Positions 23,446 to 51,759 of a DNA stretch of 64,000 bases are shown one piece after another. The stretch is taken from NCBI GenBank assembly GCA_021163005.1, contig JAGGXP010000020.1, forward strand, positions 164 through 64,163. The letters are read 5' to 3'. This DNA comes from Candidatus Aenigmatarchaeota archaeon. GTDB taxonomy: Archaea; Aenigmatarchaeota; Aenigmatarchaeia; QMZP01; JAFGSV01. The notes under the pieces were generated by a model. The model saw nothing but the letters and a program-made list of their open reading frames with translations. It had not been told where the DNA came from and did no database searches. Position 1 is the first letter of the stretch. Every line of letters starts with the position of its first letter. The position numbers and the translations under genes are program-made.

Positions 23446-23475
23446 CTTTTATTTGCAGTCCTCCAATATAGTATA

Positions 23476-30056: not shown

Positions 30057-30848
30057 TCATGGCTGGTTAATTGTTGTAATTGTTATCGGCTTCATGACTG
30101 CCTTCCCATTATCATAGACGGGGAATTTCTGCTTTGTCACTGCTGTGACATTCACCACGCATCCATTTTCGCTGCTGATTATTGCGGTTTCAACTGTGCA
30201 GCAGAAGGTTTCATGCTTCTGGTTTATCTCACCGGGATTGCACGCCTCCAGCTTTGTTCTGGCAGATTCGGCAGCATCCTTCAACTGCCTGTAAAGCTCA
30301 ATGAAGGGGGCATTGACCGTTATGTTTATCAGCGAGCTTCTCTGTATTGTGATGTCCTGAGTTTGGGATATGCGCTTGACTGTGACAGGCGAATCTCCAT
30401 GTGCAACTATCCTCAGCGAGCCTCCGTTAGGGTAAATCCTCACATTCCTGTAAAACGGGATTTCAGCAGGGAACACGAATGTCCCTGTATATTCCTTTGT
30501 GTATTTTTCCATATTTTTGGTTGTCGCGTCCGCAAGGGCCTGAATAAGGACGGCCTCGCCGGTCGCGCTGTCTGCGCTTCCGTCAGACCATAGAGCATTT
30601 CCTCCAGGTATCTCTCCTGACTTTCCCAAGTCGTACATGGCCTGGTAAAGCGACAGCTTCGCAGACTCTTCGAGATAGAGCTTTGCAAGCAATGCAGAGT
30701 CGTCCATTATGTAAACTATGTTGTTTATGCGTATTTCGGTGCTGCTCTTCTGCCAGTTAGAAGCGGATTTCAGGATGAATACTCCAATGACTATGAAAAT
30801 GAGTATAAGGAACGACATGTAAATGATGTTTGCATAAGCCTTCCGCAT
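30057..30848 (-). CDS. secreted/membrane-anchored hypothetical protein (first gene... last in operon)
   Basis: N-terminal TM anchor. The start overlaps the upstream stop. Confidence 0.5.
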   Translation of the reverse strand: MRKAYANIIYMSFLILIFIVIGVFILKSASNWQKSSTEIRINNIVYIMDDSALLAKLYLEESAKLSLYQAMYDLGKSGEIPGGNALWSDGSADSATGEAVLIQALADATTKNMEKYTKEYTGTFVFPAEIPFYRNVRIYPNGGSLRIVAHGDSPVTVKRISQTQDITIQRSSLINITVNAPFIELYRQLKDAAESARTKLEACNPGEINQKHETFCCTVETAIISSENGCVVNVTAVTKQKFPVYDNGKAVMKPITITTINQP

Positions 30849-31822
30849 CAGTCAGTCACCCCCTCATTGAGGTTCCTTATGTCCTGCATGGCTGCATTCA
30901 TGCTTGACTCGCTCGGTATCATCCACTCGAAGTGCATGGCATCCTTCACTGAGTTGAAGTCGCATCCCCAGCGGAAATGATGATTCCTGAAGGCGTCTAC
31001 GACGCATTTCGGGATGTCTGTTATGCAGGTGTTCCTGCCGTTGCATTTGGGATCCTTCGGGCAGTTCGGGTTGTTGCCGGGATTGATGTCTATTGCCAGA
31101 CCGTAGGAATGCATGCTCATCACCTCTGGGTTGTTGGTATTGGGTCTGCAGCTGTATGTGCCTGCATCCCCGGCACCTGCACTTTCGTTCCAGAAGTCGT
31201 ATTTCTTTGTTTCCTCGTCCGTGCATTTCTTTATGTCTTTAACAACTTCCTCGAAGTCATCTGCTGCCAGCTTGTTGACGTACACATCCCTGCCCATGAA
31301 GTTGATGCTGACAAGGTGGTTCCTTATGTATTGGTCATCTCCCTCGGCTCTGCAGTCACCGAACAGCTTGCTCCTCTGCGAAAACGACGAGAAGTCTGTA
31401 GATATGCGGGGAATCGCGAAGGCCGCCTTTCCTGTCCTGCCCCCCGGAAGCGGTATGTCGACATACACCAGCTCCCCTGTCTCGGTGTTGCCATACTTTT
31501 TTACTTCCTTCATGGTTTCATCGTAAAGCCGTATGCCCGTGTCCATGGATGCGGCAAGTTCTTCTATGCCGCTGTCGCTGCAGCCCAGTCCTTCAATGAT
31601 GCATGAGATTATCTCGAGGTTGCTGAACGGTTCCGTCTTTGCCTTCAGCAGCGGCCCGATTTTTCCTGTGCCGTCGTTGATTGAAACAGATATGTCTGCA
31701 TGGGCCTTCAACTGCACAGCCTTTGACAGGAACGGAATGGTGTGAATAATCATCACCACTGCCAGCACTGCCAGAGACACTAATATCAGCCCCGCAAATC
31801 CTATTGAAGCCTTCTTCATCAT
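30848..31822 (-). CDS. membrane-anchored LAS/M15-family peptidase (D-Ala-D-Ala carboxypeptidase/L-Ala-D-Glu endopeptidase-like)
   Basis: N-terminal TM helix. SMHSYGLAIDIN (SxHxxGxAxD) and FRWGCDF..DAMHFEW motifs match the M15/VanY-type zinc peptidase signatures. Confidence 0.6.
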   Translation of the reverse strand: MMKKASIGFAGLILVSLAVLAVVMIIHTIPFLSKAVQLKAHADISVSINDGTGKIGPLLKAKTEPFSNLEIISCIIEGLGCSDSGIEELAASMDTGIRLYDETMKEVKKYGNTETGELVYVDIPLPGGRTGKAAFAIPRISTDFSSFSQRSKLFGDCRAEGDDQYIRNHLVSINFMGRDVYVNKLAADDFEEVVKDIKKCTDEETKKYDFWNESAGAGDAGTYSCRPNTNNPEVMSMHSYGLAIDINPGNNPNCPKDPKCNGRNTCITDIPKCVVDAFRNHHFRWGCDFNSVKDAMHFEWMIPSESSMNAAMQDIRNLNEGVTD

Positions 31823-31826
31823 GACA

Positions 31827-33278
31827 TCACCCTGAAAGAGCCTTCCTCAGCTCGCCATACCTCAGCATGACCATCTCCACGTAATTGTCGTGCTCCCTCT
31901 TTACATTATCATTGTCTGTGTCCGGGCATCCCCAGCCCACGTATCCCCTGACAGCCGCCTTCCAGCCGCTGTATTGGAGCGTTCTGAAGCATCCCTCTGC
32001 CGAATGCCCATTCTTGTAGGTGTCGTATTTTTCACTGAGCAGCTTTATGCCCTCCCTGATATTCGTTTCAGGGTCATCATAACCTCTGACGTCTTTTGAT
32101 ATCTGCATCAGCCCGCAGTATCCGTAGTCATTGCATAGGCTGCCCTGGGAAGGCTCTTGGGTGCATGATGATTCCTGCATCATTATTGACAGGGGAAGCA
32201 GCGGGTCTGGTATGCCGTATTCCTTGGAATACTCCACAATCCACGAGGCGTAATCACTGCACGAGGTGCCGCAGGAGCATCTCCTGTTTATTATGAGGCC
32301 GATCGTGTTGGCATGGTGTATCGCACTGAGAACATCCGCAGGCGTCCTGTCTGCTGGCGTGACCTCAATGCCTGCCGCGTCGCTCCATTCACTTCCGCTG
32401 CCGGAACCGCCAAAGCCTCCCCCTCCGTAATCAAAGCCGCTTGTGTATTCGGCACGTCTTTCCATGTCGATGTCCAGCTTCAGAGGGACGGCGAAATCAC
32501 CGGCGAAGCGTATGCATACCTTCTTCCCGCGGGTGCTGTCACACTCCCAGCTGCCGCTGAAAGTCTCGGTGACTATCCTTTTCAATCCTGAGTTCGGCAG
32601 TATTTCCTTTGCGCTTATCCCTGCCTCGGGCTCAATCCAGGCAAGGATGTCATCCTCGCCGTTGAAGACAGGCGTGACTATCTGTTTCTTTATGTCGTCT
32701 GCGCCCATGAGCTGATTCTGAAGCACAGAGAGGCTGCTGCAGGCAACTGGTCTGTAGTTTCCATTCACGGCAGCGGTGTCACTGCATGTGTAGCTGCTGT
32801 AGATGTCGACAGCCATGTTGTGCTCATCGAGCCTGTAGGCATGGATGACGTAATCCCTTCCACTTTCGAGTATGGTCTGCTTCTTGTCGAGCACGGGCAT
32901 TATCGGTGATTTCATCGTCAGGTAGACAGTATGTTCAACTCTTCCCTTTTTCCCGTCAAAAACCCATGTTCCTCCCGAAGGTATGGTACTTAGCTTCATG
33001 AAATTGTCGGATAGCCCGAGCGACTGCGGACCCTCCGTGGACATGGAACTCATCTTAAGGTATTCCGTCTCAGTGCCGGTGCCTGCGAATGCCGCCAGCC
33101 TGCCTGCGGCGAGGTTTGCATATTCCATCGACCGTAGCTCGTCGCTTGATGTCGCTGTGTTAATGGAGAAGGCTATAAGCGGGGCAACTACCAGTGTGAG
33201 CAGCAGCAGCAGTATGGCTATGAATATGATTGTGCCGGCGGAGAATTCTATGTCTATGTCCATCTGCCCTTTCAGCAT
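31827..33278 (-). CDS. membrane-anchored protein with C-terminal SLT lytic transglycosylase domain
   Basis: MMQESSCTQEPSQGSLCNDYGYCGLMQIS contains the catalytic E-S..GLMQ motif of family 1 SLT/GH23. N-terminal hydrophobic anchor and a Gly-rich linker GGGGFGGSGSGS. Confidence 0.65.
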   Translation of the reverse strand: MLKGQMDIDIEFSAGTIIFIAILLLLLTLVVAPLIAFSINTATSSDELRSMEYANLAAGRLAAFAGTGTETEYLKMSSMSTEGPQSLGLSDNFMKLSTIPSGGTWVFDGKKGRVEHTVYLTMKSPIMPVLDKKQTILESGRDYVIHAYRLDEHNMAVDIYSSYTCSDTAAVNGNYRPVACSSLSVLQNQLMGADDIKKQIVTPVFNGEDDILAWIEPEAGISAKEILPNSGLKRIVTETFSGSWECDSTRGKKVCIRFAGDFAVPLKLDIDMERRAEYTSGFDYGGGGFGGSGSGSEWSDAAGIEVTPADRTPADVLSAIHHANTIGLIINRRCSCGTSCSDYASWIVEYSKEYGIPDPLLPLSIMMQESSCTQEPSQGSLCNDYGYCGLMQISKDVRGYDDPETNIREGIKLLSEKYDTYKNGHSAEGCFRTLQYSGWKAAVRGYVGWGCPDTDNDNVKREHDNYVEMVMLRYGELRKALSG

Positions 33279-33706
33279 GCGTCCACCTCGGCATAAGGCA
33301 TTTCAGGCCTCTTGGTTATGCAGATAGATTGTGGTTTTGTTATGGTCTTTTCAAAGCCCCCGCTGGCGGGAAGCGTGTTTATCCTGCTCGGGCTCTTCGA
33401 GGTCTTGCCGGATATTTTGTATTCGTTTATAACATACCACCCGGCCCTCTCAATCTCATAGCCGTCCTTTTTTCCCTTCTCCTCATAGGATATGCTCAGA
33501 GATTCTACGGAGTCCAGAGCCACCGGTATGCGCACAGAGCCCGCCTCTAAAGACGAAAGCGTGTCTATGTACAGCGCCACTGTGTCGCCGAGGCTGAAGG
33601 GATTGTCTTCGCTTAACGGGCCCACAACCCTCGTTGCTATGATGAAGAAGAAAAGCGATATGATTATTGCGAATGCCACGACAACAGCCAGCCTGGATGC
33701 CTCCAT
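33272..33706 (-). CDS. small membrane-anchored hypothetical protein
   Basis: N-terminal TM. ATGA coupling with the upstream gene. Confidence 0.45.
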   Translation of the reverse strand: MEASRLAVVVAFAIIISLFFFIIATRVVGPLSEDNPFSLGDTVALYIDTLSSLEAGSVRIPVALDSVESLSISYEEKGKKDGYEIERAGWYVINEYKISGKTSKSPSRINTLPASGGFEKTITKPQSICITKRPEMPYAEVDAC

Positions 33707-34318
33707 TCAACCACCACTGCCCGTGCTTTCAGAATAAACTATGCGGCAGGTCTTGCCTTCTGGGGACGCTTTTACGTAAAGCGGATACGTGCGGCTGAAG
33801 GTTTCTCCGCCGTTTCCCGGGATGCACTCCCAGCTTCCCGTCACCACGTTCCTTTCGCAGGTCTCAATGCCCGGCTGGAGCCCTGTGAAATCGCATTTCA
33901 TTGTGAAGACCGCCGGCTCCGAGTCCCTGAGATACCTGATATCCCTATGTGCCCATGCCTCCTTGATTTTGTCTAATTTCCTCGGCAGTGCTATTATGAA
34001 CGTGCCTGCTCTGCTGTCATCGCAGGCATTTATGCAGGCGCTCGTCTTTTCCGTGCCGTATTGGTTGCATGTGAGCTTGCAGACATTGGAATCACCAGTG
34101 AAGACGATTTTGTAGACACACTGCGAATCAAGCTCCAGGTTCGCCTGAGCACGTATCCTCCCTTCAAGTGGGGCAAGCCCTTTGAGCACCTTGGACCAGC
34201 AGGGATTCGATGTCAGGAGGGACGCCTTGAAAGCGAAAACTACAATCAGAAACAGCACGAACATTATGCCAAGCACTGTTGTCATGGTTTTTACAACAGG
34301 CGCGAGTCCCTTTTGCAT
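33707..34318 (-). CDS. Cys-rich secreted protein with pilin-like N-terminus
   Basis: N-terminus MQKGLAPVV..VLGIMFVLFLIVVFAF has a KG-hydrophobic signature. About 12 Cys. Confidence 0.5.
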   Translation of the reverse strand: MQKGLAPVVKTMTTVLGIMFVLFLIVVFAFKASLLTSNPCWSKVLKGLAPLEGRIRAQANLELDSQCVYKIVFTGDSNVCKLTCNQYGTEKTSACINACDDSRAGTFIIALPRKLDKIKEAWAHRDIRYLRDSEPAVFTMKCDFTGLQPGIETCERNVVTGSWECIPGNGGETFSRTYPLYVKASPEGKTCRIVYSESTGSGG

Positions 34319-34510
34319 ATAGAATAATTGAAGGGCATGTCTTAAATGGGTTTCATCATGAGACGAATGTTGTTATCACATTGAGCACTATGATGCCTAG
34401 CACGAGCGCGAGAATTATGCCTGCTATCATGAGAAACATCGTGGGCAGTGTATCGCCTTTGTGCATAACAATAATTTGCCGGCATGGCTTTTAAATGGGA
34501 ACGAGGCGCG

Positions 34511-35158
34511 TCAGGCGCTGTACCTGCGTATCGTCATCGTGTACTGCGGCACGTTCTGCACCCACGGCCGGCAGTAGCCGCCCTCCCAGCAGTAGCAGTG
34601 GGTCGTCCTGCCGGTATCCGGCACGCATCCTATCTCCGCTATGGTGTCCTGACCGTACTGGTCCACATAGCTTGTCCTTATCAGTTTGTAGAACGCTTCT
34701 ATGCCCTCCTGCGGGGTTTCGTATTTTGCCCACTTCCCGCAGCTCTCCTGCCCCTCCTTCGCCATAATGCAGAAGAAGTTGTTGCAGTCCTCTGTTATGC
34801 CCTCGCATGTGGCCTTTCCGAGTGATGTCTCCTGCTGCGAGACTGCCACGGCAAAAGCAGGGTCTATGTCGTAACTGACGCCGTATTTGTAGAAGGCGTG
34901 GCCCTTGTATTTCAGCTTGGGGCCGCCGTTATGCATCAGGTAGTCCACTATCTGCTTCTCCGTGACCTTCGGGTAGGATGCCGAGAATACAACGCTGCCA
35001 GACGATTCGCCGTAGCTTCCTTGGTAATCGCCACCGCTGCCTGCCGCTTTGTTCACTTCAGGAGCCTTCTTGGACAGCACGGCTGTCGCCACTATTATGG
35101 CTATGACAATCGTAAAAAAGATGAAAATAGACTTTGACAGCTCAATCTGTCCCTTCAT
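34511..35158 (-). CDS. class III signal peptide (prepilin-like) protein with putative murein hydrolase-like domain
   Basis: N-terminus MKGQIELSKSIFIFFTIVIAIIVA. The FAVAVSQQETSLGK segment weakly recalls the catalytic Glu region of GH73/SLT-type hydrolases. That domain call is low confidence. Confidence 0.5.
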   Translation of the reverse strand: MKGQIELSKSIFIFFTIVIAIIVATAVLSKKAPEVNKAAGSGGDYQGSYGESSGSVVFSASYPKVTEKQIVDYLMHNGGPKLKYKGHAFYKYGVSYDIDPAFAVAVSQQETSLGKATCEGITEDCNNFFCIMAKEGQESCGKWAKYETPQEGIEAFYKLIRTSYVDQYGQDTIAEIGCVPDTGRTTHCYCWEGGYCRPWVQNVPQYTMTIRRYSA

Positions 35159-35217
35159 AATTAGTTATGGGCAGGGGCGAATAAAAAATTAAGATGGGAA
35201 ACAGCTGGATTTAGTTG

Positions 35218-35544
35218 TCACTTCTTTACTAAGCTGCATGTACAGGGTGGATAATCCTTCATTATTTCGGAACATTTATTTGAAATTGCATTTGTATTAT
35301 CGGTATTGTCTACCTTGACTGAAAACTGAGACCAGTCTGCTCCCGGAGAACCCGGGTTCAGCTGGCAGTATGTAGCGCACTTCTGCTGGCAGAGGTTTAC
35401 TTTCATCGTGTCTGTGGACCAGATGCCGAGAACGCCCATTATGTTGCCCATCTGCGTCCCGAAGATTGTCATTATGACCAGTGCTGTCACAAGAAGAACT
35501 ATGGCTATTATGACAATGGTCAGTGTGAGCGACAATCCTTTCAT
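35218..35544 (-). CDS. small pilin-like protein with class III signal peptide
   Basis: N-terminus MKGLSLTLTIVIIAIVLLVTALVIM. 108 aa with several Cys. Confidence 0.6.
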   Translation of the reverse strand: MKGLSLTLTIVIIAIVLLVTALVIMTIFGTQMGNIMGVLGIWSTDTMKVNLCQQKCATYCQLNPGSPGADWSQFSVKVDNTDNTNAISNKCSEIMKDYPPCTCSLVKK

Positions 35545-35773
35545 AGTTTATTTATGTCAAAGGGCACTTAAAAATATATTTCCCGTGAGCGTGTCCGGTC
35601 CTTCCGATAATCCACCGTCAGTTGCCGCCTATAAGCACGTCCCTCAGCGGCTTTAGTCCTGATGAGAACCATTGCATGCTGTTGGAGTTCCATGTGAGCA
35701 TTATGCTGGCTATCAAGAGTGTGGCCACGAAAAGCATCACCAGCACAATCACAGTCCTCAGCGTGAATTCCAT

Positions 35774-38263
35774 TCAACCGCCCCCTGCGTTGGGCCATTT
35801 GGTAGATAGTTCAGCACCTACTTGTAATGCACCACCGGTTGCACCAGTTGCTGCCACCAGTGCAATAGCAGTTCCGCCTGACAAAAAGCCCGCGGCTATC
35901 GTGCCTCCCACCGTCACTGCCTGCCCTGCTATATTCAGGGCTATGCTTCCTCCGGTAGGCTGTGCATAGCAGTAGTTGTCTTCCTCAACGCTTCTTTTGT
36001 CGAAATCCGTTACAATGACAGCATCAGGCATCCTGCAGTCTGTCATTGTGTATGTCTCGAATTCAATCCCTGTTCCGGTGTCCATGAATTCCAGCAGTTG
36101 GTGTATTGTGTTTCCAAACTCGGGGTTGATGATACCGCTGCTTATCCCTATCTTGTCGGGATAATAGTCTCCGTTGTTTTCAGTAAGCTCTACCCAGTAG
36201 CCGGCATGTGTACTCATTCCACTGTCAGCAGGGGAACCAAGAGCACTTATACTCCAGTTGTCGCCGTATCTGAAATTAGTGTAAACTGTATTTTTAGTCC
36301 CCATCATATCAGAATAGGTGAATGCTCTGTCATTCATATCTTCTATCATCTTGCAGATTGTGTCACTCTCTCTTTCACTCTTTTCACACCTTTCATAAAC
36401 TCCTGCATACCCAAGGCACCCGGCTCCCGGCATGAATGCGAAGTTCCTGGTTCCATCAATGTTTTTTGGGTTGTAGCTTTCAAGGTATTTTTCTCCGTCA
36501 GCAGTTATTATGCATTTTTTGTCGAAATCGTCAAATCTCAGGAATATTTTGGCATCTTTATATGTGGCCTCTGCCTCCAGATAAGCGCTCGTGTCTGTGT
36601 CGCTCTTCACGATGGGAACTTTCGTTACTCCCGAACCTGTGTCAAAAATGAGATAAGCGTCTTCCAGTGTGTGCCCAGGCCGTGTGTCGAACACCGCGTA
36701 GACGCCGTCAGAGAGCAGAACAGTGGCCCTGTTGTTCCCCACCTGCATGAACTCCGGAAGCTTACCGTCCGCGAAATCAAGGACCTCCCTGACTATCGGG
36801 TCCCTGGCAGGGTCGGCCCTGAAGCTTCCGCCGTTTGTCCTCAGGTATGTGTCCGGCTCAGTACATAACGGGTATTTGTCATTTTTAACAACGGGCTCAT
36901 TGCAGGTTATATCGCCATCTTCATTTGCATAGTATCCGCAAATCACTTCATCGCTCCTCTTCACTTTCATGCTGCTTAGGTAGCATGGAGATGCAAGAAC
37001 GAGTGTTGGTGTGGATTTTCTGAACAGGTGTCTTTTGTACCTGATTATGACCGGCACATCCTTTTCCATATTGAACTGTTCGGGCTCCTCATCCCCTGCC
37101 CGCTTAAACAGTATTGAGTTTTTGTGAGAAGTCAGCTTGCCAATCCAGCTGTCAAGCACATCAGCGGCAGAAAGGGTTGCTATAGCGCCAAGGCCAGTAA
37201 CCACTTTTCCTCCCTGCCTAAAGGCAGCCCCAGGCTTCCCAACGGCTGCCAGCAGCTTGTCCTTCATGTCTTTTTTAATTGCTTCTGCTATTTGTCTTCG
37301 TCCATTAACCTCGGCATCTTTTATGAAGTTCCTTGCTATGTATTTGTCAACAGTAGCAGATCTTTTAATCGCATTCTTTATTCCTCCCATTGCAATTTTC
37401 TCAGCCTCGCTCACTGCGGCCTTTCCGGTAATTGCTCCTATCTTTCCTATTGGAATTGCGGAAGCAGCTATTATAAGTCCGTACATCCACCATGAATCAT
37501 GGAACGTCCACGTATCCTCGCTCATGGGGAACTTCTGCCAGTATACGAGGTACTTCGGGTCGCCGTAGTAGGGTATCCAGTCCTCCGCTTCGGTAATTGT
37601 CTGTGGCAGGTTGAAGTTGTTAACAGTGCATTCCGTGCCGCCGGGAGTTTCCTCACAGGTAACATATGGCTTCATCGGAACGAGCCTCGTGCATTCACAA
37701 TCATCACGGACTGACCTGTCCGGTACAAGTAAGGGATTTCTCTTATGGTATCTCCCGCTGTATGCGATGCAGCCGGGGATTTCGCCGCATACCTTTTCGT
37801 AGTTGTTCGGATCCGTGCATTGTTCCTCGCACTCTTTGTCCGTCTTGATACCTGATTTCCTGTGTATGTAAACTTCCTCCATGAAATAGTCATTCACCAT
37901 CTGCTCCGGTGTGAGCTGGTTTATGTCTGTCGGGAGTGTTGCCTGCGACCCGTAGTAATCCTTGCAGGCAGTTTCCCCCACGCTTCCATAATACTGACTG
38001 CCCTGGGTCACGGAGTTCACTGCGCACACGAGTGCCTCCGTGGACATCTTGGCTGCTTTATAATCGTCTGACGCCGGGGTGTTGATATCTTTGCAGGCAG
38101 GTGAATCAGGCGTCACCTTGCATATGATGCTGCGCATGTTCTCATTGTCATTCACAGAAACGAAAGTCGCGAACATAGCGCCCGCTCCCACTATGAAGAT
38201 GAGCACAAGAATTATCCTCAGTGTCTGGCCCGCAGTAAACTCCATTATGCCCTTTGAAGCCAT
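35774..38263 (-). CDS. large Cys-rich secreted protein with prepilin-like N-terminus and C-terminal Gly/Ala-rich hydrophobic segment (putative filament tip/adhesin)
   Basis: N-terminus ..MASKGIMEFTAGQTLRIILVLIFIVGAGAM. More than 40 Cys. The ORF track starts at 38284; the start is uncertain. Confidence 0.55.
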   Translation of the reverse strand: MASKGIMEFTAGQTLRIILVLIFIVGAGAMFATFVSVNDNENMRSIICKVTPDSPACKDINTPASDDYKAAKMSTEALVCAVNSVTQGSQYYGSVGETACKDYYGSQATLPTDINQLTPEQMVNDYFMEEVYIHRKSGIKTDKECEEQCTDPNNYEKVCGEIPGCIAYSGRYHKRNPLLVPDRSVRDDCECTRLVPMKPYVTCEETPGGTECTVNNFNLPQTITEAEDWIPYYGDPKYLVYWQKFPMSEDTWTFHDSWWMYGLIIAASAIPIGKIGAITGKAAVSEAEKIAMGGIKNAIKRSATVDKYIARNFIKDAEVNGRRQIAEAIKKDMKDKLLAAVGKPGAAFRQGGKVVTGLGAIATLSAADVLDSWIGKLTSHKNSILFKRAGDEEPEQFNMEKDVPVIIRYKRHLFRKSTPTLVLASPCYLSSMKVKRSDEVICGYYANEDGDITCNEPVVKNDKYPLCTEPDTYLRTNGGSFRADPARDPIVREVLDFADGKLPEFMQVGNNRATVLLSDGVYAVFDTRPGHTLEDAYLIFDTGSGVTKVPIVKSDTDTSAYLEAEATYKDAKIFLRFDDFDKKCIITADGEKYLESYNPKNIDGTRNFAFMPGAGCLGYAGVYERCEKSERESDTICKMIEDMNDRAFTYSDMMGTKNTVYTNFRYGDNWSISALGSPADSGMSTHAGYWVELTENNGDYYPDKIGISSGIINPEFGNTIHQLLEFMDTGTGIEFETYTMTDCRMPDAVIVTDFDKRSVEEDNYCYAQPTGGSIALNIAGQAVTVGGTIAAGFLSGGTAIALVAATGATGGALQVGAELSTKWPNAGGG

Positions 38264-38296
38264 AATTATTATTTGAAACAGCACTTTAAATGGTTG

Positions 38297-40399
38297 TCAA
38301 GCGCCGAGAGTCTTCATGGCGCCCTCTATCATGCCGCCGAAAGCCATGCTCGAGCCTATGGCCACGAGCACGTATATAATCATGGAAACCATGAGCATCT
38401 TTCCCGCAAGGTTCCACTGCATGGCCCTGTCGTCTCCGCGGTTGACCTTCGTGACGAACATGGCTATTATGATTATGACTTCTATCAGGTAGAATCCCAC
38501 TATTATCTGGAACATGGTGGACGATATGGAGGTGGAGGAGCCGAGAAGCTTGCCGGCGTCTATGGTGAAAGTTTCCTGGAATCCCATGTCATTCAGCCGG
38601 CCGCCGAGGAAGACCAGCACCTGTATTATGACCTGCGACATCGCGACGATGAGCCCCGTCACAAGGGGTGCCATTGCGTATGCCTGGAACTGCATGCTGC
38701 TCGTGGTCTCTGACAGCAGTCCCCTCATGTATTCCTGCGTCTCCCTGACGTTCTTGAGGTACCTCGACACCGTCAGCATGGACTGCGAAGCGAACTGCAC
38801 GCCCTTCTTTGCTGTATCCGTTATGGTGCGCATGACATTCTGTATCAGCCTGCTCGGATAGAACCTGAGGGCTCCGCTCTGCGGGTCCATAAGCGCCCGC
38901 TCGAATGTCATGTTGAAGTTCCGCATGTTTCTGAGGATTATCCCGAACATGCGCGATATCTCGAGGTCCTTTACATCCTCGTTTGCCTTTTCAATGGCGA
39001 TTTCCAGGGGCGTCCCGCCGGATATGCGGTTGCCCAGCTGGAACAGCGCCAACTCGAACTCCGATTCCATTTTGTATACAGAGTCCTCGACGCGCAGGCG
39101 CTGGTAGTTGGACATGATGAAGAATATGGAAAGGCCAACTGCTGTTCCCAGGATGGGCAGTATTGACATGAGCAGCGAGAAGAACGGGTCCGGGTCTTCG
39201 ATGCGCTCGTTAGAGATGACACCGTTCTCAACCTTCTGCGGAACTATCAGGTATTCGGGATGCTCTATGAAATACAGTATGCCGGGAAGGGCTATCAGCA
39301 GGCCGATTATCAGTGCTATTGGAAGAACCGGAAGGACTATTCTGCTGTTGCCCGTCTTCAGCATGAACGTTCCCTTCGGTGGCAGGTTCGGGTGCTTCGA
39401 AACGTCAACCTTCGAGAATGTCACCGGCCTCTTGCTCAGTATGTTGTTTATAAACCATATGAGCAGAAGCGGCAGGACTATGTTGTAGCCCACTATGAAA
39501 TGTATGGGGCTGACACTGTCAGCCATGAAGATAGCAGCCATCGGCGCCATTACAGACCCGAGTATCGGCAGCACTATGCCCATCATGTGTATTACAGTGA
39601 CAGGCATCTGGAGTTCCTGGGCATAGTGCTTCATCCTGTCCCTTGTGCCGTCAAGAACGACCCTCAGTGCTTCATCAAGCGTCTTTTCTGCCTTCTCCGG
39701 CACCTGCTTCTGGGACTCCATTATCAGCCGCAGGGCCTCTGAAAACTCCTCGTTCTCCGGCTTCCATTTATTGATATAGTCCATCATGGCCTCGTTGGCA
39801 GAGTAGTAGCGGCCCATCTGTATGTCCCACAGGAGTTTCCTTATGTCCCATGCGAGAACCCCTGATATGTTCGACGATGTGAACTTCAGAGCCCCTTCCA
39901 CATTTGGAGATATGCGCATGCTCACGACCATGTAGAGTATGGCCAGAACCACCTGCGAGCTTGCCTGTATTCTCATGGACTTCATGAGGCTCTTCGGATA
40001 GTTCATGAGGTAGTATCCGACTCCGAGGCCCAGCGCAGCTGCGAGCGCTATGCCGAAGACGTTCTTGAGCACACCAAAAGCAAACAGGAAGCCTGAAGCA
40101 AACGAAAAGAAGATGACAGAAAGCAGGAAAAGGGCAACAGGCGCGTTGGGTTTTATTCTCAGTCCCGTGAAGTCTATGGCTGCCTTGAGTTCCATGCTCG
40201 TCTTTTCGTCAAAGCTTATGTCCATCAGGCTTCCGGCGAACCTCGCGAGTACCTCATACCATGTCAGCTTTACATCTGTCCTTTTCCTGAATATCCTGTA
40301 GTCGCGCGATGTGACGTCTATGGTATGCTGCGAAGGAGAAACACCCGGAGCTGCGTAACGGGCACTCCTATGTTTGTTTTTATTGCCGAAGAGTCCCAT
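38297..40399 (-). CDS. FlaJ/TadC-like polytopic membrane platform protein (enlarged, 700 aa)
   Basis: Two T2SS-F-like TM bundles with large cytoplasmic domains. Confidence 0.7.
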   Translation of the reverse strand: MGLFGNKNKHRSARYAAPGVSPSQHTIDVTSRDYRIFRKRTDVKLTWYEVLARFAGSLMDISFDEKTSMELKAAIDFTGLRIKPNAPVALFLLSVIFFSFASGFLFAFGVLKNVFGIALAAALGLGVGYYLMNYPKSLMKSMRIQASSQVVLAILYMVVSMRISPNVEGALKFTSSNISGVLAWDIRKLLWDIQMGRYYSANEAMMDYINKWKPENEEFSEALRLIMESQKQVPEKAEKTLDEALRVVLDGTRDRMKHYAQELQMPVTVIHMMGIVLPILGSVMAPMAAIFMADSVSPIHFIVGYNIVLPLLLIWFINNILSKRPVTFSKVDVSKHPNLPPKGTFMLKTGNSRIVLPVLPIALIIGLLIALPGILYFIEHPEYLIVPQKVENGVISNERIEDPDPFFSLLMSILPILGTAVGLSIFFIMSNYQRLRVEDSVYKMESEFELALFQLGNRISGGTPLEIAIEKANEDVKDLEISRMFGIILRNMRNFNMTFERALMDPQSGALRFYPSRLIQNVMRTITDTAKKGVQFASQSMLTVSRYLKNVRETQEYMRGLLSETTSSMQFQAYAMAPLVTGLIVAMSQVIIQVLVFLGGRLNDMGFQETFTIDAGKLLGSSTSISSTMFQIIVGFYLIEVIIIIAMFVTKVNRGDDRAMQWNLAGKMLMVSMIIYVLVAIGSSMAFGGMIEGAMKTLGA

Positions 40400-40440
40400 G
40401 CTAATTATTTTGTTGCCGCTGCTTTAATTTGTTGAAAGAA

Positions 40441-42687
40441 TCAGCTAATGTTCTTTTTGAACCAGTGAAGCCAGTCATCGTAAACCCTCTTGGATTCGGC
40501 GCTGCCCACTTCCTTGACAGCTGCTTCAGAGAACATGTGGAACATCGAATTCGACTTGGTGACCCATCCCGCCTCGAGCAGTTCCGGCTTCTTCAGCTTT
40601 GTGCTCATGTCGACCATGGTCTTCTTTATCCGCGCCCTCAGGTTTATGTTGTCCCAGACTGCCTGCCAGTCGCCGTGCCAGTCGCTGACATAGCTGGCTA
40701 TCCTGTTTATGGTCTCTGACTCCCCGTTTACAAGCGTGTCGGTGGGCTTCAGCGCATCCTCTTTGGCCGAGTATTCGAAAAGGTTGACAAAGCCTCCCTC
40801 CTTGTCGGGATTCTTCTCCCACTTCTTTCTGATTTCGGTTATCTCTGTCATCCTTCTGTACCTGTGCAGGCCGTCGGCGGACCTGAGTGTCTTGCATATC
40901 GGGATTATATCAGTCGCCTTGAATGATGTCATGGGAACGCCAAGATCGTTCACGACCCTGTCGAAAACACCGTATGCGGACTCGCCGTGTATGGTACCCA
41001 TGACCACATTCGAAAGCGCACCTATTCGCATAGCCTCGTAAAGTGCCTTTGCCTCAGTGGACCTGACCTCTCCGAGTACAAGCGCTGAGTCTCCCAGCCT
41101 GAGTGCTGTCCTAAGCGCCTCGTCCGAGGCTACCTCTGTCTCCACCATGGTAAGAACTGATCTCGACTTCAGCCGTTCTATGTTATAGCCGAGTTCCCTC
41201 AGCTGCTCTGTGGGAAGCTCAAGTGTGTCCTCTATTGAAACTATGCGCGTCTTCGGCAGCATCTCCACCATGAAAGCCGCCAGCATGGATGTCTTGCCGG
41301 CGCCCCTGCCCCCGGCTATGAGCATGCTGGCTGTGCCGTCTATGAAGAACGAAATCACACCCGCGGCCAGCGGTGTCAGCGCCTTGTTCTTTATGAAAAG
41401 AGGCAGCGTCCACGGCTTGTCCCTGTGCCTCCTTATGGCGAAGCCGAGGCCGTGCGGCGACAGCGACCTTGTGATTATGCAGAACCTTGCCTTTCCGCCA
41501 GGCACTGTGATGTCAGTGTCCAGGACGGGATTTGCCTCATCCAGCGGCCTTCCAGACTGCATCCTCAGACGGGTTGCCCAGGCCTCTGCATCATCCTGTG
41601 TTGGTATGAGATTCGTCCGGCATTCCTCGAACTCTGAGTGGGTAATCATTATGGGCTGAGACTCCACAGGCGAGTTTATGTATATGTCCTGGACGTTCTC
41701 GTCAGCCAAAAGAAGCTCGAGGACGCCGAGTCCGGCGGTGTATCTCGTCAGTATCACGGCGAGCTGCTCAAGCTCGTCTTTCGAGAGATACACATGCTGG
41801 TGGTCAGCCACCTCGCGTATCATGTCGCGGCCTATGTTGTAGAACACGTCCCTTATTTTCCCTGTCCTGACGAACTCCTCGCTCTTCGGCTTGTGAGTGG
41901 CCATGTACCTTCTTGCAGCATCAAGGACAGCGTATTTGTCCTCGCTCAGGACGAACTCAGGGGGAAGCACGTAATAAAAGTATTCAGCCCTGTCAGGAAG
42001 CTTGAATATCTCCACCTCTATGTCGCCGACATTGTAGCGCTTCACAGACTTGCCGTTTTCCGGAGGGGTTATCATGTACCTCGTAAGCATGAAGTTCGGT
42101 CTGACACTCGGCACGAAAATGTCCCTGTAGAGCGACCTGTCGCCGGTGTGGTATCCTGCCAGCTGGGACTTGACCATGCCTATCATGCGCGTCTCTGCCA
42201 GACGCTTCATTATGACCCCGAGGACATTCTTTATGTAATCTGAGTACAGCACCCTGGCACTGGGATGCCTCGTCTCTTTCATGCGCACGCGAAGGCGCCT
42301 TATCTCCCTTACTATCTCGACATATGCTCCTATGGGATCCCTTCTCATCAGGTTGACGACTATATTCTGCAGACGGGCGTTGAGCTCGGGGTACAGCTTT
42401 CTCTGTATGTTGTCCCTGATTTTCAGCCTCGTCATGAGCCTTTCCCTGACTATGTCCTCTATGACCCTGGCTATTTCCACGAGCATCTCGGTCTGCTCGG
42501 GGCCGTACTCGTATTCCCTGTCCTTTGTGAGAATTATGGTTTTTACATTCTTGACCTCCAGAATCCTGTCAATCACGTCAGCCATGCACTCTGCAAAGTC
42601 CTCTATGCTGGCCCCATAAATCGAACCCAAGTAGTTTATCTTGAGCTTCTGCTCATCCTCGTCATAAGTATAGTTGCCTGAAGGCAT
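40441..42687 (-). CDS. FlaI/VirB11-family secretion ATPase with long N-terminal extension (748 aa)
   Basis: Walker A GGRGAGKTS followed by IVSIEDTLELP. The N-terminal ~250 aa is extra relative to typical FlaI. Confidence 0.8.
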   Translation of the reverse strand: MPSGNYTYDEDEQKLKINYLGSIYGASIEDFAECMADVIDRILEVKNVKTIILTKDREYEYGPEQTEMLVEIARVIEDIVRERLMTRLKIRDNIQRKLYPELNARLQNIVVNLMRRDPIGAYVEIVREIRRLRVRMKETRHPSARVLYSDYIKNVLGVIMKRLAETRMIGMVKSQLAGYHTGDRSLYRDIFVPSVRPNFMLTRYMITPPENGKSVKRYNVGDIEVEIFKLPDRAEYFYYVLPPEFVLSEDKYAVLDAARRYMATHKPKSEEFVRTGKIRDVFYNIGRDMIREVADHQHVYLSKDELEQLAVILTRYTAGLGVLELLLADENVQDIYINSPVESQPIMITHSEFEECRTNLIPTQDDAEAWATRLRMQSGRPLDEANPVLDTDITVPGGKARFCIITRSLSPHGLGFAIRRHRDKPWTLPLFIKNKALTPLAAGVISFFIDGTASMLIAGGRGAGKTSMLAAFMVEMLPKTRIVSIEDTLELPTEQLRELGYNIERLKSRSVLTMVETEVASDEALRTALRLGDSALVLGEVRSTEAKALYEAMRIGALSNVVMGTIHGESAYGVFDRVVNDLGVPMTSFKATDIIPICKTLRSADGLHRYRRMTEITEIRKKWEKNPDKEGGFVNLFEYSAKEDALKPTDTLVNGESETINRIASYVSDWHGDWQAVWDNINLRARIKKTMVDMSTKLKKPELLEAGWVTKSNSMFHMFSEAAVKEVGSAESKRVYDDWLHWFKKNIS

Positions 42688-42752
42688 TAAAACACCTTGA
42701 CTGCTATTTAAACAGCTGTGTACTATTTTATATTGTGGTGCTCTAAATAAAA

Positions 42753-43154
42753 ATGACCGGAGTGTTGCCTATGCCAGTTTTCGGTGAAGACCAAAAAAAG
42801 AAGGAAGGAGGCGCTGTTCCTGTTGTCAATGAGATAGTCGGCAGGGTCAATGACAACACGAAAAGGCTCCGCCTGCTCGAACAGAGGGAGAAGCTTCTTA
42901 CAAGCCGCATAAGCTCAATGGACGAGTCGTTCGCTTCGAGAATCGACGGCATCGACAATTCCCACAAGGACATGACCAGGAAGCTCGCAGACCTTGAAAG
43001 CAAGGTGACCACAATCAACAACACTCTCAAGGAAGCCCTGAAACAGCTCCAGTTCACGGCGAAGAAAAGCGAACTAATGAAGGTCGAGGAAACCATTAAA
43101 ATACTCGAGTCAGCGCTGCCCGCGCTCACCGGAGAGGAAAGCAGCGTCAAGTAA
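42753..43154 (+). CDS. coiled-coil protein
   Basis: 133 aa, heptad-rich. Diverges from the pilus operon. Confidence 0.5.
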   Translation: MTGVLPMPVFGEDQKKKEGGAVPVVNEIVGRVNDNTKRLRLLEQREKLLTSRISSMDESFASRIDGIDNSHKDMTRKLADLESKVTTINNTLKEALKQLQFTAKKSELMKVEETIKILESALPALTGEESSVK

Positions 43155-43201
43155 AACTTTAAGTAGGCGAAAACCAAAATATAAAAAGGCTGGTACTGAT
43201 T

Positions 43202-44170
43202 ATGCTGGGATTTGGGAAAAAGAAAAACAATCCGCCCCCGTCTGCTCAAGGCGCGGGAATGGCTATTCCGACACAGAAGGTGCTAGCTCTTTCATCCCAG
43301 GGATTCTCAGAGCCGGAAATCGTCAAAAAGCTCAGGGAGGAAGGCTTTTCCCCTCTTCAGGTAGACAGGGCCATGAAGGACGCTATGCGTTCCGGTGCCG
43401 CGGCAAAGCCGGCTCCAACACCTGCTCCCCCGCAGCCGCCTGCCCCCCGGCCGCCACAGCCTCAGGCAGCTCCGGATGCAATGTCAGGACCGCCGACGCC
43501 GGAAAGTTTTTTTGCTCCACCGCCTCAAAGAGCGGCATTCCCCGATGATGACCTTGATGACATAGACGACATTGACATAGACAAAATACCGGACAAGTCC
43601 AAGCTCGGCCCGAATGCCATGATGGCTGACATAGACAAAACCATTCCTGAACCTCTTGGCCAAGAGCCGGAGCCGCTTCCCTTCGCAAAGCCGCCGCTTC
43701 CGAAAGACAAGGAAGACAGGGAAAGGGCTCTGAGAGACAGGAAGCGCAGGGAAATAGAAGAGATGACAGAGGAGATAGTCGAGGAAAAGTGGAAGGATGT
43801 CATGAGCAGGATACAGGTTCTCGAGGAAAATGTTGAAAAGCTCTCAAATGATGTGAAACATTACAGCCATGGAGCAACATCTGAGGCCGCTGCCCCTGAA
43901 ATCAAAGGGCTAAAGGACGAAATCGCAAGGCAGAAGGAGAGCATCGACGAAACCAATGCCCGCATAGATTCGCTCGAAGAGGTTGTCAAGGGTTCGCTTG
44001 CTCCGATGATAGAATCAGTAAGGAAATTCAATAAGCTGTCAAAAACTCCTCCAGCATCTCCGAATCCTCCTGCTGCATCCGTACATAAGAATGCCCCGGA
44101 AGAAAAGCCAGAACCTGAAGAGCCACCGCGCTATGCACCGAAAGGCAAAGCCGGCGCTACTTCTAAATAA
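43202..44170 (+). CDS. proline-rich/acidic/coiled-coil protein
   Basis: PAPTPAPPQPPAPRPPQPQ tract, a DDDLDDIDDIDID acidic patch, and a C-terminal coiled coil. Confidence 0.5.
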   Translation: MLGFGKKKNNPPPSAQGAGMAIPTQKVLALSSQGFSEPEIVKKLREEGFSPLQVDRAMKDAMRSGAAAKPAPTPAPPQPPAPRPPQPQAAPDAMSGPPTPESFFAPPPQRAAFPDDDLDDIDDIDIDKIPDKSKLGPNAMMADIDKTIPEPLGQEPEPLPFAKPPLPKDKEDRERALRDRKRREIEEMTEEIVEEKWKDVMSRIQVLEENVEKLSNDVKHYSHGATSEAAAPEIKGLKDEIARQKESIDETNARIDSLEEVVKGSLAPMIESVRKFNKLSKTPPASPNPPAASVHKNAPEEKPEPEEPPRYAPKGKAGATSK

Positions 44171-44192: not shown

Positions 44193-44741
44193 TTACTCGC
44201 TAGGTTTTTCGCCGCCTGAGCTGCCACCAGTGTCACTGCCACCCACGAACCAGAAGATTATCGCGATTATCACAATCACGAATATCACGGTCCACAGGTC
44301 GCTGCCGGTAAGCCAGTACGGCAGGTATGCTGAGAACAGACCTCCCTGACCAAGAATGGCCATGAGCACAAGGTAAATTACAATAAGCACTACCAAGTAC
44401 TTTATCCAGTTGTTCTTCTTATCCCCGAAAAGGTCGTGAAGGTTAATTCCAAGCAATGCGAGCACCAGCACAAGCAACAGCACAACTGTTGCGAAACCGA
44501 GCCATACGCCTGACGTTGTGGTCAGGAATGTGTAAAGCCATGGGTTGTAGCTGGAGTACAGCATCACGAAGAACGAGAGGACGATTGCGATAAGTGTGTG
44601 CACCCTCTTGCCCCCAAGGCCCTCCTTGAAAACCCACTGAAGAAGTCCGTACAGAAGTGCGAACGACAGCAGGAACGGGAACAGATACTGGAAGAATTCC
44701 ATTCTCTGCATATTCTGAACCATTGTTTCGAATAGTCCCAT
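44193..44741 (-). CDS. small polytopic membrane protein
   Basis: Four to five TM helices and a Gly/Ser tail. Confidence 0.45.
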   Translation of the reverse strand: MGLFETMVQNMQRMEFFQYLFPFLLSFALLYGLLQWVFKEGLGGKRVHTLIAIVLSFFVMLYSSYNPWLYTFLTTTSGVWLGFATVVLLLVLVLALLGINLHDLFGDKKNNWIKYLVVLIVIYLVLMAILGQGGLFSAYLPYWLTGSDLWTVIFVIVIIAIIFWFVGGSDTGGSSGGEKPSE

Positions 44742-44789
44742 AACAGATTATTAGCCGGAAATACTTATAAACTTTTGGTGATTTGCACG

Positions 44790-45116
44790 CTACTTCCTGA
44801 AAATTGCCGATACATTTATGCCTGCCAGCTTAAGCACAACGACCACCAGCAGGAAGATAACAGCGACGGCGACAGCAAGAACTGAAAGGAAACTTGCGGA
44901 ATCGGCCGCATACGGAGCGAACGGAAAGTAGAGGAGAGCTGTGACAAGCGCGGAAATCAGCAGTGAAACGAGCTGCCTGTGCGTCTGCCTTGAAATCTTC
45001 TCTTTCAGAAAGGCGAGGAGCGCGTAGAAGAGCAGTATGAAAAGCAGGAAATATGCAAGCACTGTGAAAAAGCCGTGGGCGGAAAGAAATGACACTGCTA
45101 GGCTGAATATACCCAT
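44790..45116 (-). CDS. small membrane protein
   Basis: Three TM helices. Confidence 0.4.
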   Translation of the reverse strand: MGIFSLAVSFLSAHGFFTVLAYFLLFILLFYALLAFLKEKISRQTHRQLVSLLISALVTALLYFPFAPYAADSASFLSVLAVAVAVIFLLVVVVLKLAGINVSAIFRK

Positions 45117-45125
45117 ATACTCACT

Positions 45126-45566: not shown

Positions 45567-45575
45567 ATGCGCACC

Positions 45576-51701: not shown

Positions 51702-51759
51702 AACTATTCTTGGCTTCTGCTAATATAAATTTCAGGCAGGATAGTAAATTATAAATAGA

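Follow-up and report, generated by a model that had tools for sequence, protein, structure and literature searches.

Why should an archaeon keep enzymes for cutting bacterial cell walls, and keep them beside the motor of a surface filament? The question is raised by a gene cluster at positions 30057–42687 (minus strand) of a 64,000-nucleotide (nt) stretch of the Candidatus Aenigmatarchaeota contig JAGGXP010000020.1, a stretch referred to hereafter as the window. To our knowledge archaea make no murein, and the cluster couples an assembly machine of the type IV filament (TFF) type to exported proteins that bear predicted murein hydrolase domains. We think it probable that the cluster encodes the TFF machine of a DPANN archaeon together with pilin-like carriers for murein hydrolases, which would act on bacterial walls. 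Pilus-borne murein degradation directed at bacterial walls had been proposed in a preliminary description of this DNA, and our analysis supports that proposal as far as sequence can carry it, the bacterial target being presumed rather than observed. Domains were assigned from Pfam scores relative to the family cut-offs, from NCBIfam equivalog models and from profile searches against the PDB, and the window proteins were compared by local searches with related genome loci and metagenome contigs (labelled L001–L074; homologous proteins carry P labels), among which L054 and L001 are two loci of the closed genome CP070804.1.

Eleven co-oriented genes make up the cluster, with junctions of -7 to +192 nt, and counted from the ATPase gene their products are 748, 700, 836, 51, 108, 215, 203, 144, 483, 324 and 263 amino acids (aa) long, i.e. 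an ATPase, a platform protein and nine exported proteins. All of the open reading frames (ORFs) listed in the preliminary description are present on this strand where it placed them. The ATGA overlaps that it reported were not recovered; the junctions include two TGAATG sequences (gap 0), an overlap of 7 nt and a TGATG overlap of 1 nt. Downstream of the cluster lie genes for Alba and enolase.

The locus is classified by its predicted proteins as one of the TFF type. The 748-aa protein matches Pfam T2SSE (4e-14), its relatives in the PDB are Archaeoglobus fulgidus GspE2 (2oap; 2e-27), CpaF (2.3e-21) and FlaI (3.6e-14), and the NCBIfam TadA and FlaI models reach it with values of 1e-35 to 1e-40, which lie below the equivalog cut-offs; it was the only cluster protein to receive a family name in the NCBIfam scan. 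The 700-aa protein is predicted to be the membrane platform with two T2SSF repeats. The window protein itself gives a weak T2SSF match (0.012), T2SSF is matched by 25 of the 44 members of its family (best value 3.3e-7), and alignment with the window's canonical T2SSF protein in hhalign recovered the second repeat at 3.5e-5 and 71.6% probability, so that a FlaI-like ATPase and a FlaJ-like platform, as first proposed, both stand. Since the ATPase scores 137.6 bits against the FlaI equivalog, with a cut-off of 550, it is not an archaellum motor, and an archaellum was rejected on this ground and because archaellum accessory families occur in no cluster protein. Membership of the Bas (bindosome) group was likewise set aside, the BasE model scoring 55.2 bits for a cut-off of 1000 and Pfam finding no solute-binding domains, although the system may function in a bindosome-like way. 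A type IV secretion system (T4SS) or conjugative element was rejected too: a T2SSF platform is present, Pfam and NCBIfam found no VirB4, VirD4, relaxase or other T4SS families among the cluster proteins, and the similarity of the ATPase to the VirB11 family is weak and lower than that to TadA and FlaI.

Three of the exported proteins carry predicted hydrolase domains, which together would cover the glycan bonds of murein as well as its peptide stem. The C-terminal part of the 324-aa protein is assigned by sequence as a LAS/M15_4 zinc peptidase: it matches Peptidase_M15_4 (PF13539) at 9.5e-17 and 61.8 bits, above the cut-off of 25, and its zinc-ligand motifs SxHxxGxAxD and HFE can be aligned with those of Ply500, the L-Ala-D-Glu peptidase of a Listeria phage (0.004). 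An exact-sequence look-up of this protein returned no record, and its context was taken from homologs. The 215-aa protein is a predicted GH73 N-acetylglucosaminidase with its catalytic Glu in the motif QQETSLGK. Its Pfam Glucosaminidase match (3.9e-6, 28.0 bits) falls under the cut-off of 30.2, and its family extends to 15 homologs, several with a precomputed PF01832 assignment and one named glucosaminidase by NCBI. The family profile finds LytB and AtlE in the PDB at 5e-6 and aligns the Glu, which is invariant across the 16 aligned sequences, to the catalytic Glu of LytB. An AlphaFold2 model, with a predicted local distance difference test (pLDDT) score of 71.5, consists of an N-terminal helix, a disordered linker and a domain for which Foldseek returns LytB (3.9e-5) and then AtlE, SagB and FlgJ, the top 20 matches being nearly all GH73 enzymes. 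For the third enzyme, an SLT lytic transglycosylase predicted at the C-terminus of the 483-aa protein, the Pfam match in the window (4.8e-4, 20.1 bits) is just under the cut-off of 21.3 and that of the L056 ortholog (22.5 bits) is above it. PF01464 is annotated in relatives at 37–40% identity (P0124–P0126), the family profile retrieves MltC (1.9e-7) followed by MltE and Slt70, and the motifs MMQESS, GLMQI and AAVRGY[NV]G are conserved in the alignment. The corresponding AlphaFold2 model, built from a 7-sequence alignment, has a pLDDT of 47 and MltF as its top Foldseek match at an E value of 0.3, which is unusable as evidence, and because of this poor model the SLT assignment rests on profiles and motifs. 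Profile, Pfam and structure searches therefore bear out the SLT and LAS/M15 motif sets first read from the DNA, the SLT by profiles and motifs, and they resolve as GH73 a segment that had been called possibly GH73/SLT-like and that sits on a prepilin-type signal.

These enzymes share their N-termini with the other exported proteins. Seven of the nine (those of 836, 108, 215, 203, 483, 324 and 263 aa; Table 1) start with the pattern M-x(0-3)-[KR]-[GA] and continue into a strongly hydrophobic helix, as against three of 60 other ORFs in the window (Fisher p = 3.7e-6). Among these three are two true Pilin_N pilins, which belong to a conventional pilus locus. The motif persists at low identity: it is present in 40 of 47 representatives of the family of the 263-aa protein, in 14 of 16 GH73 family members and in 6 of 7 sequences of the SLT set, and the exceptions mostly resemble truncated gene calls. 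As the motif is both specific within the window and retained where the remaining sequence diverges, we read these N-termini as predicted class III (prepilin-type) signals. Earlier reading had noticed such signals in at least three proteins, which holds as to the motif and falls short as to the count. Most of the exported proteins are also rich in cysteine, which makes up 2.5–5.6% of residues in seven of the nine, whereas it reaches 0.5% in the ATPase and is absent from the platform; the 144-aa and 263-aa proteins contain 1.4–1.5% and the 51-aa protein none.

Comparison with the related loci showed three of the pilin-like proteins to be predicted carrier modules whose C-terminal enzyme varies between genomes. 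Carrier 1 (~280 aa) is followed by a Gly-rich linker and SLT in the window, in P0122 and in L056, and occurs without an effector in L005, L010, L011, L012 and L054, where proteins of 270–285 aa match residues 1–280. Carrier 2 (~145 aa) is joined to M15_4 in the window and in L054 (CP070804.1), to M23 in L005, L010, L012 and L056, and to a poly-Gly tail or linker only in the 168-aa form of L004. Carrier 3 (~263 aa) stands without an effector in the window, L054, L012 and L011; in L056 it is part of a 504-aa protein with an SGNH/GDSL esterase domain at residues 324–487, and in L003/L005 of the 1203-aa protein P0150 with Ig/PKD, YkuD and Amidase_3 domains. When 1.84 billion representative proteins were searched exhaustively with HMMER, only 47 representatives of the carrier-3 family emerged, of 202–1203 aa, all of which align at the N-terminus. 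The only Pfam domains in these 47 are Amidase_3, SLT and GDSL (two each) and M23, YkuD, PKD and M64 (one each), so that the identifiable domains fused to carrier 3 are mostly wall-active enzymes, and this census marks the module as a specialised carrier for such enzymes. The hydrolase domains thus appear to be swappable effectors on conserved pilin-like carriers, which extends the idea of the preliminary description. The carrier-3 ortholog with the SGNH/GDSL domain (L056 12485–13999; 1.4e-13) occurs in the same genome as an SLT fusion. Some SGNH esterases are peptidoglycan O-acetylesterases, whose action removes a block to lytic transglycosylases; the L056 domain could equally be a lipase acting on a host membrane.

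Genes for the ATPase, the platform and the carriers follow one another in this order in L003/L005, L004/L011, L010, L012 and L056, and from the platform onward in L054. A comparable design recurs in L052 (ATPase 55% and platform 32% identical to those of the window) and the related L055, in which M23 and SLT proteins lie among small pilin-like proteins; the K/R-G/A motif with a hydrophobic start is found in eight of eight L052 proteins and in most of those of L055, and a Peptidase_A24 gene lies within ~8 kb of both of these analogous clusters. The L052/L055 hydrolase cluster sits near RPA and RadA genes. In metagenome contigs (L061–L074), the GH73 subfamily of the window stands at the C-terminal end of proteins of 755–1697 aa, which in L062 and L066 are encoded at most ~6 kb from a T2SSE ATPase and small class III-like genes. 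These large GH73 proteins may be the 'large' murein-degrading proteins reported for Woesearchaeota (PMC9723730).

Table 1. Predicted features of the filament and hydrolase cluster in the window. A slash follows the K/R-G/A motif of class III-like N-termini.
Feature	Position	Strand	Description
Assembly ATPase, 748 aa	40441..42687	-	TadA/GspE2/FlaI-type; extra N-terminal (~1-285) and C-terminal (~620-748) regions
Polytopic membrane platform, 700 aa	38297..40399	-	Two T2SSF-like repeats (~155-286, ~404-553)
Cys-rich exported protein, 836 aa (829 from Met8)	35774..38284	-	MASKG/IMEF start; Gly/Ala-rich hydrophobic C-terminus
Single-helix membrane protein, 51 aa	35618..35773	-	MEFTLRTVIVLV...
Candidate major pilin, 108 aa	35218..35544	-	MKG/LSLTLTIVIIAIVLLVTALV; MKG/LSLT start; 6 Cys
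Predicted GH73 N-acetylglucosaminidase with pilin-type signal, 215 aa	34511..35158	-	MKG/QIEL helix 2-30, linker 31-56, GH73 ~34514-34981
Pilin-like protein, 203 aa	33707..34318	-	MQKG/LAPV; 10 Cys; without enzyme domain
Membrane-anchored protein, 144 aa	33272..33706	-	MEASRLAVVVAF...; fails the K/R-G motif test
Carrier module 1 with SLT, 483 aa	31827..33278	-	Carrier residues 1-~290 (32409-33278), MLKG/QMDIDIEF
Predicted SLT lytic transglycosylase domain	31830-32351	-	Residues ~310-483 of the 483-aa protein, after Gly-rich linker
Carrier module 2 with M15_4, 324 aa	30848..31822	-	Carrier residues 1-~150 (31373-31822), MMKKA/SIGF
Predicted Peptidase_M15_4 (LAS-type zinc peptidase) domain	30923-31132	-	Residues 231-300 of the 324-aa protein
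Carrier module 3 alone, 263 aa	30057..30848	-	MRKA/YANIIY; without effector here
TATA-box-like element TTTAAATA	42705..42712	-	18-25 nt upstream of the ATPase start codon; pattern match only

The remaining exported proteins supply candidates for the other parts of a filament. The 108-aa protein is the best conserved of the small subunits, with 42–54% overall identity and nearly invariant first 30 residues among the orthologs compared (L004, L005, L009, L010, L012, L054 and L056), and is a candidate for the major pilin on this basis. Searches of Pfam, NCBIfam and the PDB give no match for the 836-aa protein, which probably starts at Met8 and, first described as Cys-rich, has 22 Cys. Its termini are kept in proteins of 859–1153 aa at the same position (L005, L009–L012, L038, L054 and L056) and the middle is variable; we regard it as a candidate adhesin or tip component. 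Homologs of the 51-aa protein (49–51 aa) stand at the same position in L003, L004, L054 and L056, orthologs of the 203-aa protein were found in L005, L011, L054 and L056, and those of the 144-aa protein, at 36–39% identity, in L005, L010, L011, L012, L054 and L056.

The sequences show the gene order, the identities of the domains, the conservation of the N-terminal motif and the exchange of enzymes on conserved carriers, whereas signal cleavage, incorporation into a filament and living bacteria as the target are inferred. Taken together, these data suggest a mechanism in which eight exported proteins would enter the membrane by the N-terminal class III-type signal and a PibD/Peptidase_A24 enzyme encoded elsewhere in the genome would trim that signal after K/R-G/A. 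From the 108-aa major pilin the 748-aa ATPase and the 700-aa platform would then assemble a pilus or short pseudopilus, which the minor subunits (the 203-aa and 144-aa proteins and the three carriers) would prime or cap, being built into the filament rather than plainly anchored at the surface. Flexible Gly-rich linkers would expose the enzymes against the glycan and peptide parts of peptidoglycan, with a cutting kit of GH73, SLT and M15_4 here that in relatives would include M23, Amidase_3, YkuD or an SGNH esterase. Contact with a bacterium could thereby lead to local opening of the sacculus, and this could let the archaeon attach tightly, reach the membrane or cytoplasm, kill the bacterium or set muropeptides free; the choice among attachment, penetration, killing and feeding on wall fragments lies beyond the evidence of sequence.

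Several observations weigh against this reading. No cluster protein matches the hidden Markov models (HMMs) for Pilin_N or the class III signal, which do recognise the window's two canonical pilins (Pilin_N), and a phmmer search with the L052 enzyme found no prepilin peptidase in the 64-kb window. In the GH73 model a long disordered linker follows the helix, which is not the lollipop fold of a pilin and would fit a simple tethered enzyme equally well, and the carrier modules were not modelled with confidence (pLDDT <50), so that a pilin fold is no more than putative for them. We know of no bacterial partner of any Aenigmatarchaeota. The linkage is also narrow in its distribution: in a survey of 47 loci, distant Aenigmatarchaeota have the ATPase and platform without this cluster beside them, the platform standing alone or by unrelated genes, and the compact hydrolase cluster was seen downstream of the platform only in the close clade of the window. 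An association of hydrolases with this locus throughout the phylum was accordingly dropped. Finally, a genomic study of Aenigmarchaeota, which noted only FlaG/I/J-like genes, argued against bacterial hosts (PMC8407114).

Among the alternatives, the one that survives best, and which we nevertheless hold to be unlikely, is that the displayed enzymes digest free peptidoglycan or dead walls for amino sugars and amino acids, as parts of a bindosome-like feeding organelle. DPANN genomes are metabolically reduced, the window encodes metabolic functions of the salvage type (form III RuBisCO, AMP phosphorylase and peptidases M24 and M42), the authors of a study of archaeal peptidoglycan hydrolases left scavenging open (PMC12352652), and TFF machines with class III substrate-binding proteins have been proposed to serve nutrient capture (bioRxiv 10.64898/2026.04.22.720090). 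Against this, neither transporter nor muropeptide-catabolic genes were found in the cluster with Pfam and NCBIfam, the tethering of the enzymes to a membrane helix favours action on contact, and the quick swapping of effector domains is more like the pattern of an arms race or of host range.

A second possibility is that the hydrolases are only neighbours of the machine, i.e. ordinary anchored or secreted proteins with uncleaved signal anchors that the TFF apparatus does not handle. The conservation of Gly or Ala at position -1 across families that share <30% identity argues otherwise, as do the near confinement of the motif within the window to cluster proteins and true pilins (two of the three others), the constant order of ATPase, platform and carriers, and the recurrence of the design in L052 and L055. 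The missing pilin HMM matches, the lack of a peptidase gene in the window and a GH73 model made of helix, disordered linker and enzyme with no pilin head would all agree with such an arrangement. Carriers also occur without any enzyme, however, and so have a role of their own, and we judge it distinctly improbable that the hydrolases are mere neighbours of the machine.

It is very unlikely that the enzymes open a murein- or pseudomurein-like layer of the archaeon itself for passage of the filament. Bacterial trans-envelope machines do often encode a dedicated lytic transglycosylase or GH73 enzyme, and the YkuD L,D-transpeptidase domain of one relative could in principle make cross-links. No gene for murein synthesis was seen across the 64 kb of the window or the flanks (~20 kb) of the annotated loci, however, and pseudomurein is not known outside Methanobacteriales and Methanopyrales (PMC10117817). 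A dedicated enzyme would moreover need no three to five rapidly swapped hydrolase classes, and sister genomes with the same machine (L004/L011) lack the hydrolase.

Nor do we see more than the slightest chance that the target is the pseudomurein of methanogen hosts in place of bacterial murein. Pseudomurein contains beta-1,3-linked N-acetyltalosaminuronic acid with a C6 carboxylate, on which an SLT enzyme cannot form its 1,6-anhydro product, and, since its amino acids are all of the L form, it suits M15, M23 and amidase enzymes poorly. The pseudomurein lysins known to us are PeiW/PeiP-type cysteine isopeptidases. This established chemistry and the match of the domains to murein-acting enzymes stand against the one circumstance in favour of such a target, namely that every proven DPANN host is an archaeon (PMC8407114).

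That leaves the origin of the contig, which we conclude is native to Aenigmatarchaeota (DPANN) and neither a bacterial contaminant nor a recent island. Archaeal genes run through the window (TFB, aIF2-alpha, SRP54, Pus10, an archaeal CCA-adding enzyme, RtcB with archease, RadA, RPA and Alba), which also contains a form III RuBisCO AMP-salvage set, and the GC content of the cluster (0.45–0.55 versus 0.505) and its codon usage are as in housekeeping genes, so that the window looks archaeal throughout, as had been claimed. Among the best 120 of thousands of ATPase homologs, identities are 60–100% and the named ones are from Aenigmatarchaeota; homologs of 65–83% identity occur in Aenigmatarchaeota metagenome-assembled genomes, closed genomes included. 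A search with the platform protein gave 47 genome loci, almost all titled Aenigmatarchaeota, including the closed CP070804.1 and CP070801.1, and the same cluster lies beside Alba and enolase in several Aenigmatarchaeota assemblies, CP070804.1 among them. We can therefore give practically no credence to an artefact (a bacterial or candidate phyla radiation contaminant, a provirus lysis cassette or a conjugative T4SS island), even though the hydrolase families are typically bacterial or phage-borne and the nearest phage matches of the M15 domain are Rhizobium phage tape-measure proteins: native composition, archaeal informational genes and the conserved Alba/enolase setting oppose it, VirB4, VirD4 and relaxase are not among the cluster proteins, and the GH73 family has no relatives in viral contigs, on which ground the lysis cassette was rejected. 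The circumstances that the preliminary description had named as fatal to its reading thus did not materialise, the motifs being supported as domains, the contig archaeal and the locus no T4SS or conjugative element. Among 50,697 phage records the M15_4 domain (30851–31201) matched only the Rhizobium phage tail tape-measure proteins, at 38–40% identity and an E value of 6e-7; there, too, the M15 domain serves wall entry from outside and not lysis from within.

Murein hydrolases in archaea are themselves no novelty, and on this point the originality claimed for the locus must be narrowed. In the account of PMC9723730, they have been reported in DPANN since the genome of Woesearchaeota AR20, and that paper describes GH23 'lytic murein transglycosylases' of Woesearchaeota and proposes a predatory or 'vampiristic' DPANN lifestyle. 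A 2025 survey located peptidoglycan hydrolases in ~5% of archaeal genomes, most prominently Nanoarchaeota, and the Halogranum enzymes Woldo and Danwoldo (M23 and GH73) were shown to kill bacteria (PMC12352652). Only 32% of archaeal peptidoglycan hydrolases have Sec or Tat signals (PMC12352652), which leaves the export route of most of them unexplained. The claim does hold for the link of hydrolases to a pilus machine or to class III signals in archaea, which we did not find described in the open-access papers and preprints searched: PMC9723730 and PMC12352652 do not connect pili or class III signals with hydrolases, and two surveys of archaeal type IV pili make no mention of peptidoglycan or hydrolases (PMC4858521; bioRxiv 10.64898/2026.04.22.720090). 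The published archaeal enzymes are likewise M23, GH73 and GH23 proteins of murein-free archaea. They are soluble, bear peptidoglycan-binding domains, show a Tat or Sec signal or none that is recognised, and are in many cases plasmid-borne, whereas those described here lack binding domains, ride on predicted pilin-like carriers and are encoded chromosomally in a TFF operon.

We regard the system as an archaeal and catalytic version of the modular-pilin and bindosome concepts, whose single ingredients are known and whose combination would be unexpected in a phylum believed to have archaeal hosts. The Sulfolobales bindosome (BasEF with BasABC) similarly consists of an archaeal TFF ATPase, a platform and small pilin-like proteins; its cargo is solute-binding proteins and not murein hydrolases, and only here do the cargo genes lie inside the machine operon, on dedicated carrier modules and without an ABC transporter. 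Class III substrate-binding proteins have been proposed to 'functionalise' archaeal TFF machines (bioRxiv 10.64898/2026.04.22.720090). Bacterial modular pilins, e.g. Streptococcus sanguinis PilB (vWA) and PilC (lectin), share with the present proteins a carrier with a class III signal, predicted here, that is joined by a short linker to an effector, likely tip-exposed, and a wealth of architectures created by domain grafting (PMC8179133). They are bacterial, with the IPR012902 N-methylation motif and mostly adhesive effectors (PMC8179133), in contrast to an archaeal set with three carriers in one operon and catalytic effectors that are exchanged between close relatives. Of the hallmarks of modular pilins, a class III-like signal, a conserved N-module, a linker and a swappable effector are seen here, and the carrier models have pLDDT values <50. 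Among ultrasmall symbionts, Saccharibacteria also engage a bacterial host in a type IV pilus-dependent manner and are bacterial, not archaeal (PMC9894109, PMC11623550).

Two further comparisons are with bacterial machines that handle murein. BfpH, R64 PilT, VirB1, FlgJ and EtgA are machine-dedicated muramidases of envelope-spanning systems, and as here their SLT or GH73 genes share an operon with the filament or secretion machine. Their substrate is the sacculus of the producer itself, there is usually a single enzyme per machine, and they have Sec signals, in contrast to several swapped enzyme classes in a producer without known murein. The bacterial type VI secretion system delivers Tae, Tge and Tlde1-type effectors (amidases, glycosidases and L,D-transpeptidase-fold enzymes) by contact, and so also couples interchangeable peptidoglycan-targeting effectors to a surface nanomachine. 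It differs in its contractile sheath, where a TFF is found here, in its bacterial producers and in its immunity genes, none of which are evident here; with a producer that has no murein, none would be needed.

The surroundings of the cluster merit brief description. The TATA-box-like element TTTAAATA may be the operon promoter, on a pattern match only; a scan for sigma-70 promoters and terminators was disregarded as inapplicable to archaea. Divergent from the ATPase gene, 42753–43154 (+) and 43202–44170 (+) encode a coiled-coil protein of 133 aa and a protein of 322 aa that has a Pro-rich linker and ends in a coiled coil, neither of which matches Pfam. A pair of similar size and the same orientation, its homology judged by position and size only, adjoins the ATPase in L001–L004, and a pair is found beside the ATPase also in CP070801.1, although the ATPase and platform are >380 kb apart in that genome; the two proteins may work with the ATPase or regulate it. 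Just upstream of the region that contains the ATPase gene, 44193–46301 (-) encodes four small polytopic membrane proteins (182, 108, 146 and 241 aa) without a family match; at the corresponding site of L001, L003 and L004 lie genes of similar size. Four minus-strand ORFs (42743–43249, 51732–52343, 35568–35798 and 34491–34808) are of low complexity or odd composition, overlap better-supported genes that lie in another frame or on the opposite strand, and are probably not genes. The third of these is the 76-aa ORF of the preliminary description, where the conserved gene is the 51-aa ORF.

Some homologs of the machine genes are interrupted. Seven ATPase orthologs (P0023, P0024, P0105, P0111 and P0116–P0118) are ~1260–1284 aa long and contain intein/homing-endonuclease domains (PF14528, PF14890), with a query coverage of 65–73% that is consistent with insertion in the ATPase. 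The platform gene of CP070804.1 is split: residues 1–121 follow the ATPase (L001 12288–12660) and residues 137–698 (L054 4602–6302) head the pilin and hydrolase cluster ~300 kb away, with an integrase gene near. This may reflect a rearrangement or an assembly problem, and the system there is perhaps inactive. An Amidase_2 gene beside the ATPase of CP070804.1 was first taken as an effector and then dropped, as it has a Tat-like RREFIRM signal and lies at the platform-splitting rearrangement.

Elsewhere in the window, a second and conventional archaeal type IV pilus locus lies at 14227–18686 beside RPA and RadA. It encodes a PilB3-type ATPase (562 aa; T2SSE 2.9e-30 and PilB3_C), two Pilin_N pilins (149 and 150 aa) and two separate T2SSF platforms (287 and 310 aa), which indicates that the organism has an ordinary adhesion pilus besides the hydrolase-bearing system. 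The AMP-salvage set at 22618–26282 (+) comprises an IF-2B-family ribose-1,5-bisphosphate isomerase-like protein, form III RuBisCO and an AMP/thymidine phosphorylase-like protein; AMP-salvage genes also flank the cluster in L056, consistent with a nucleotide-scavenging lifestyle. At 513–676 (-) the Rfam tRNA model covers 164 nt with an insertion at 30.4 bits, just above the gathering score, and ARAGORN finds none; this is probably an intron-containing archaeal tRNA. The RtcB ligase and archease are encoded at 12057–13891.

A conserved and fast-evolving murein-cutting kit on a pilus machine amounts to genomic evidence that these archaea engage bacterial walls, in contrast to the proven DPANN hosts, which are all archaea, and to the Aenigmarchaeota study that excluded bacteria (PMC8407114). 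A 'vampiristic' lifestyle of DPANN (PMC9723730) gains a concrete and testable mechanism. Class III signals and a TFF machine offer a possible export route for those archaeal peptidoglycan hydrolases, about two thirds of the total, that lack Sec or Tat signals (PMC12352652), and the modular-pilin and bindosome concepts, so far of adhesins and binding proteins, would extend to catalytic effectors. The carrier–linker–enzyme design and the compact Cys-rich hydrolases could yield new antibacterial enzymes, and the effector repertoire might help to predict host range. We put forward, tentatively and as a possibility that still falls short of probable, that Aenigmatarchaeota and at least one other DPANN lineage breach the walls of living bacteria with a pilus or pseudopilus that bears a tip complex of pilin-like carriers armed with exchangeable hydrolases. 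If true, this would be the first molecular apparatus for parasitism or predation of an archaeon on bacteria, would explain how archaeal hydrolases without Sec or Tat signals are exported, and would make archaeon–bacterium parasitism directly testable.

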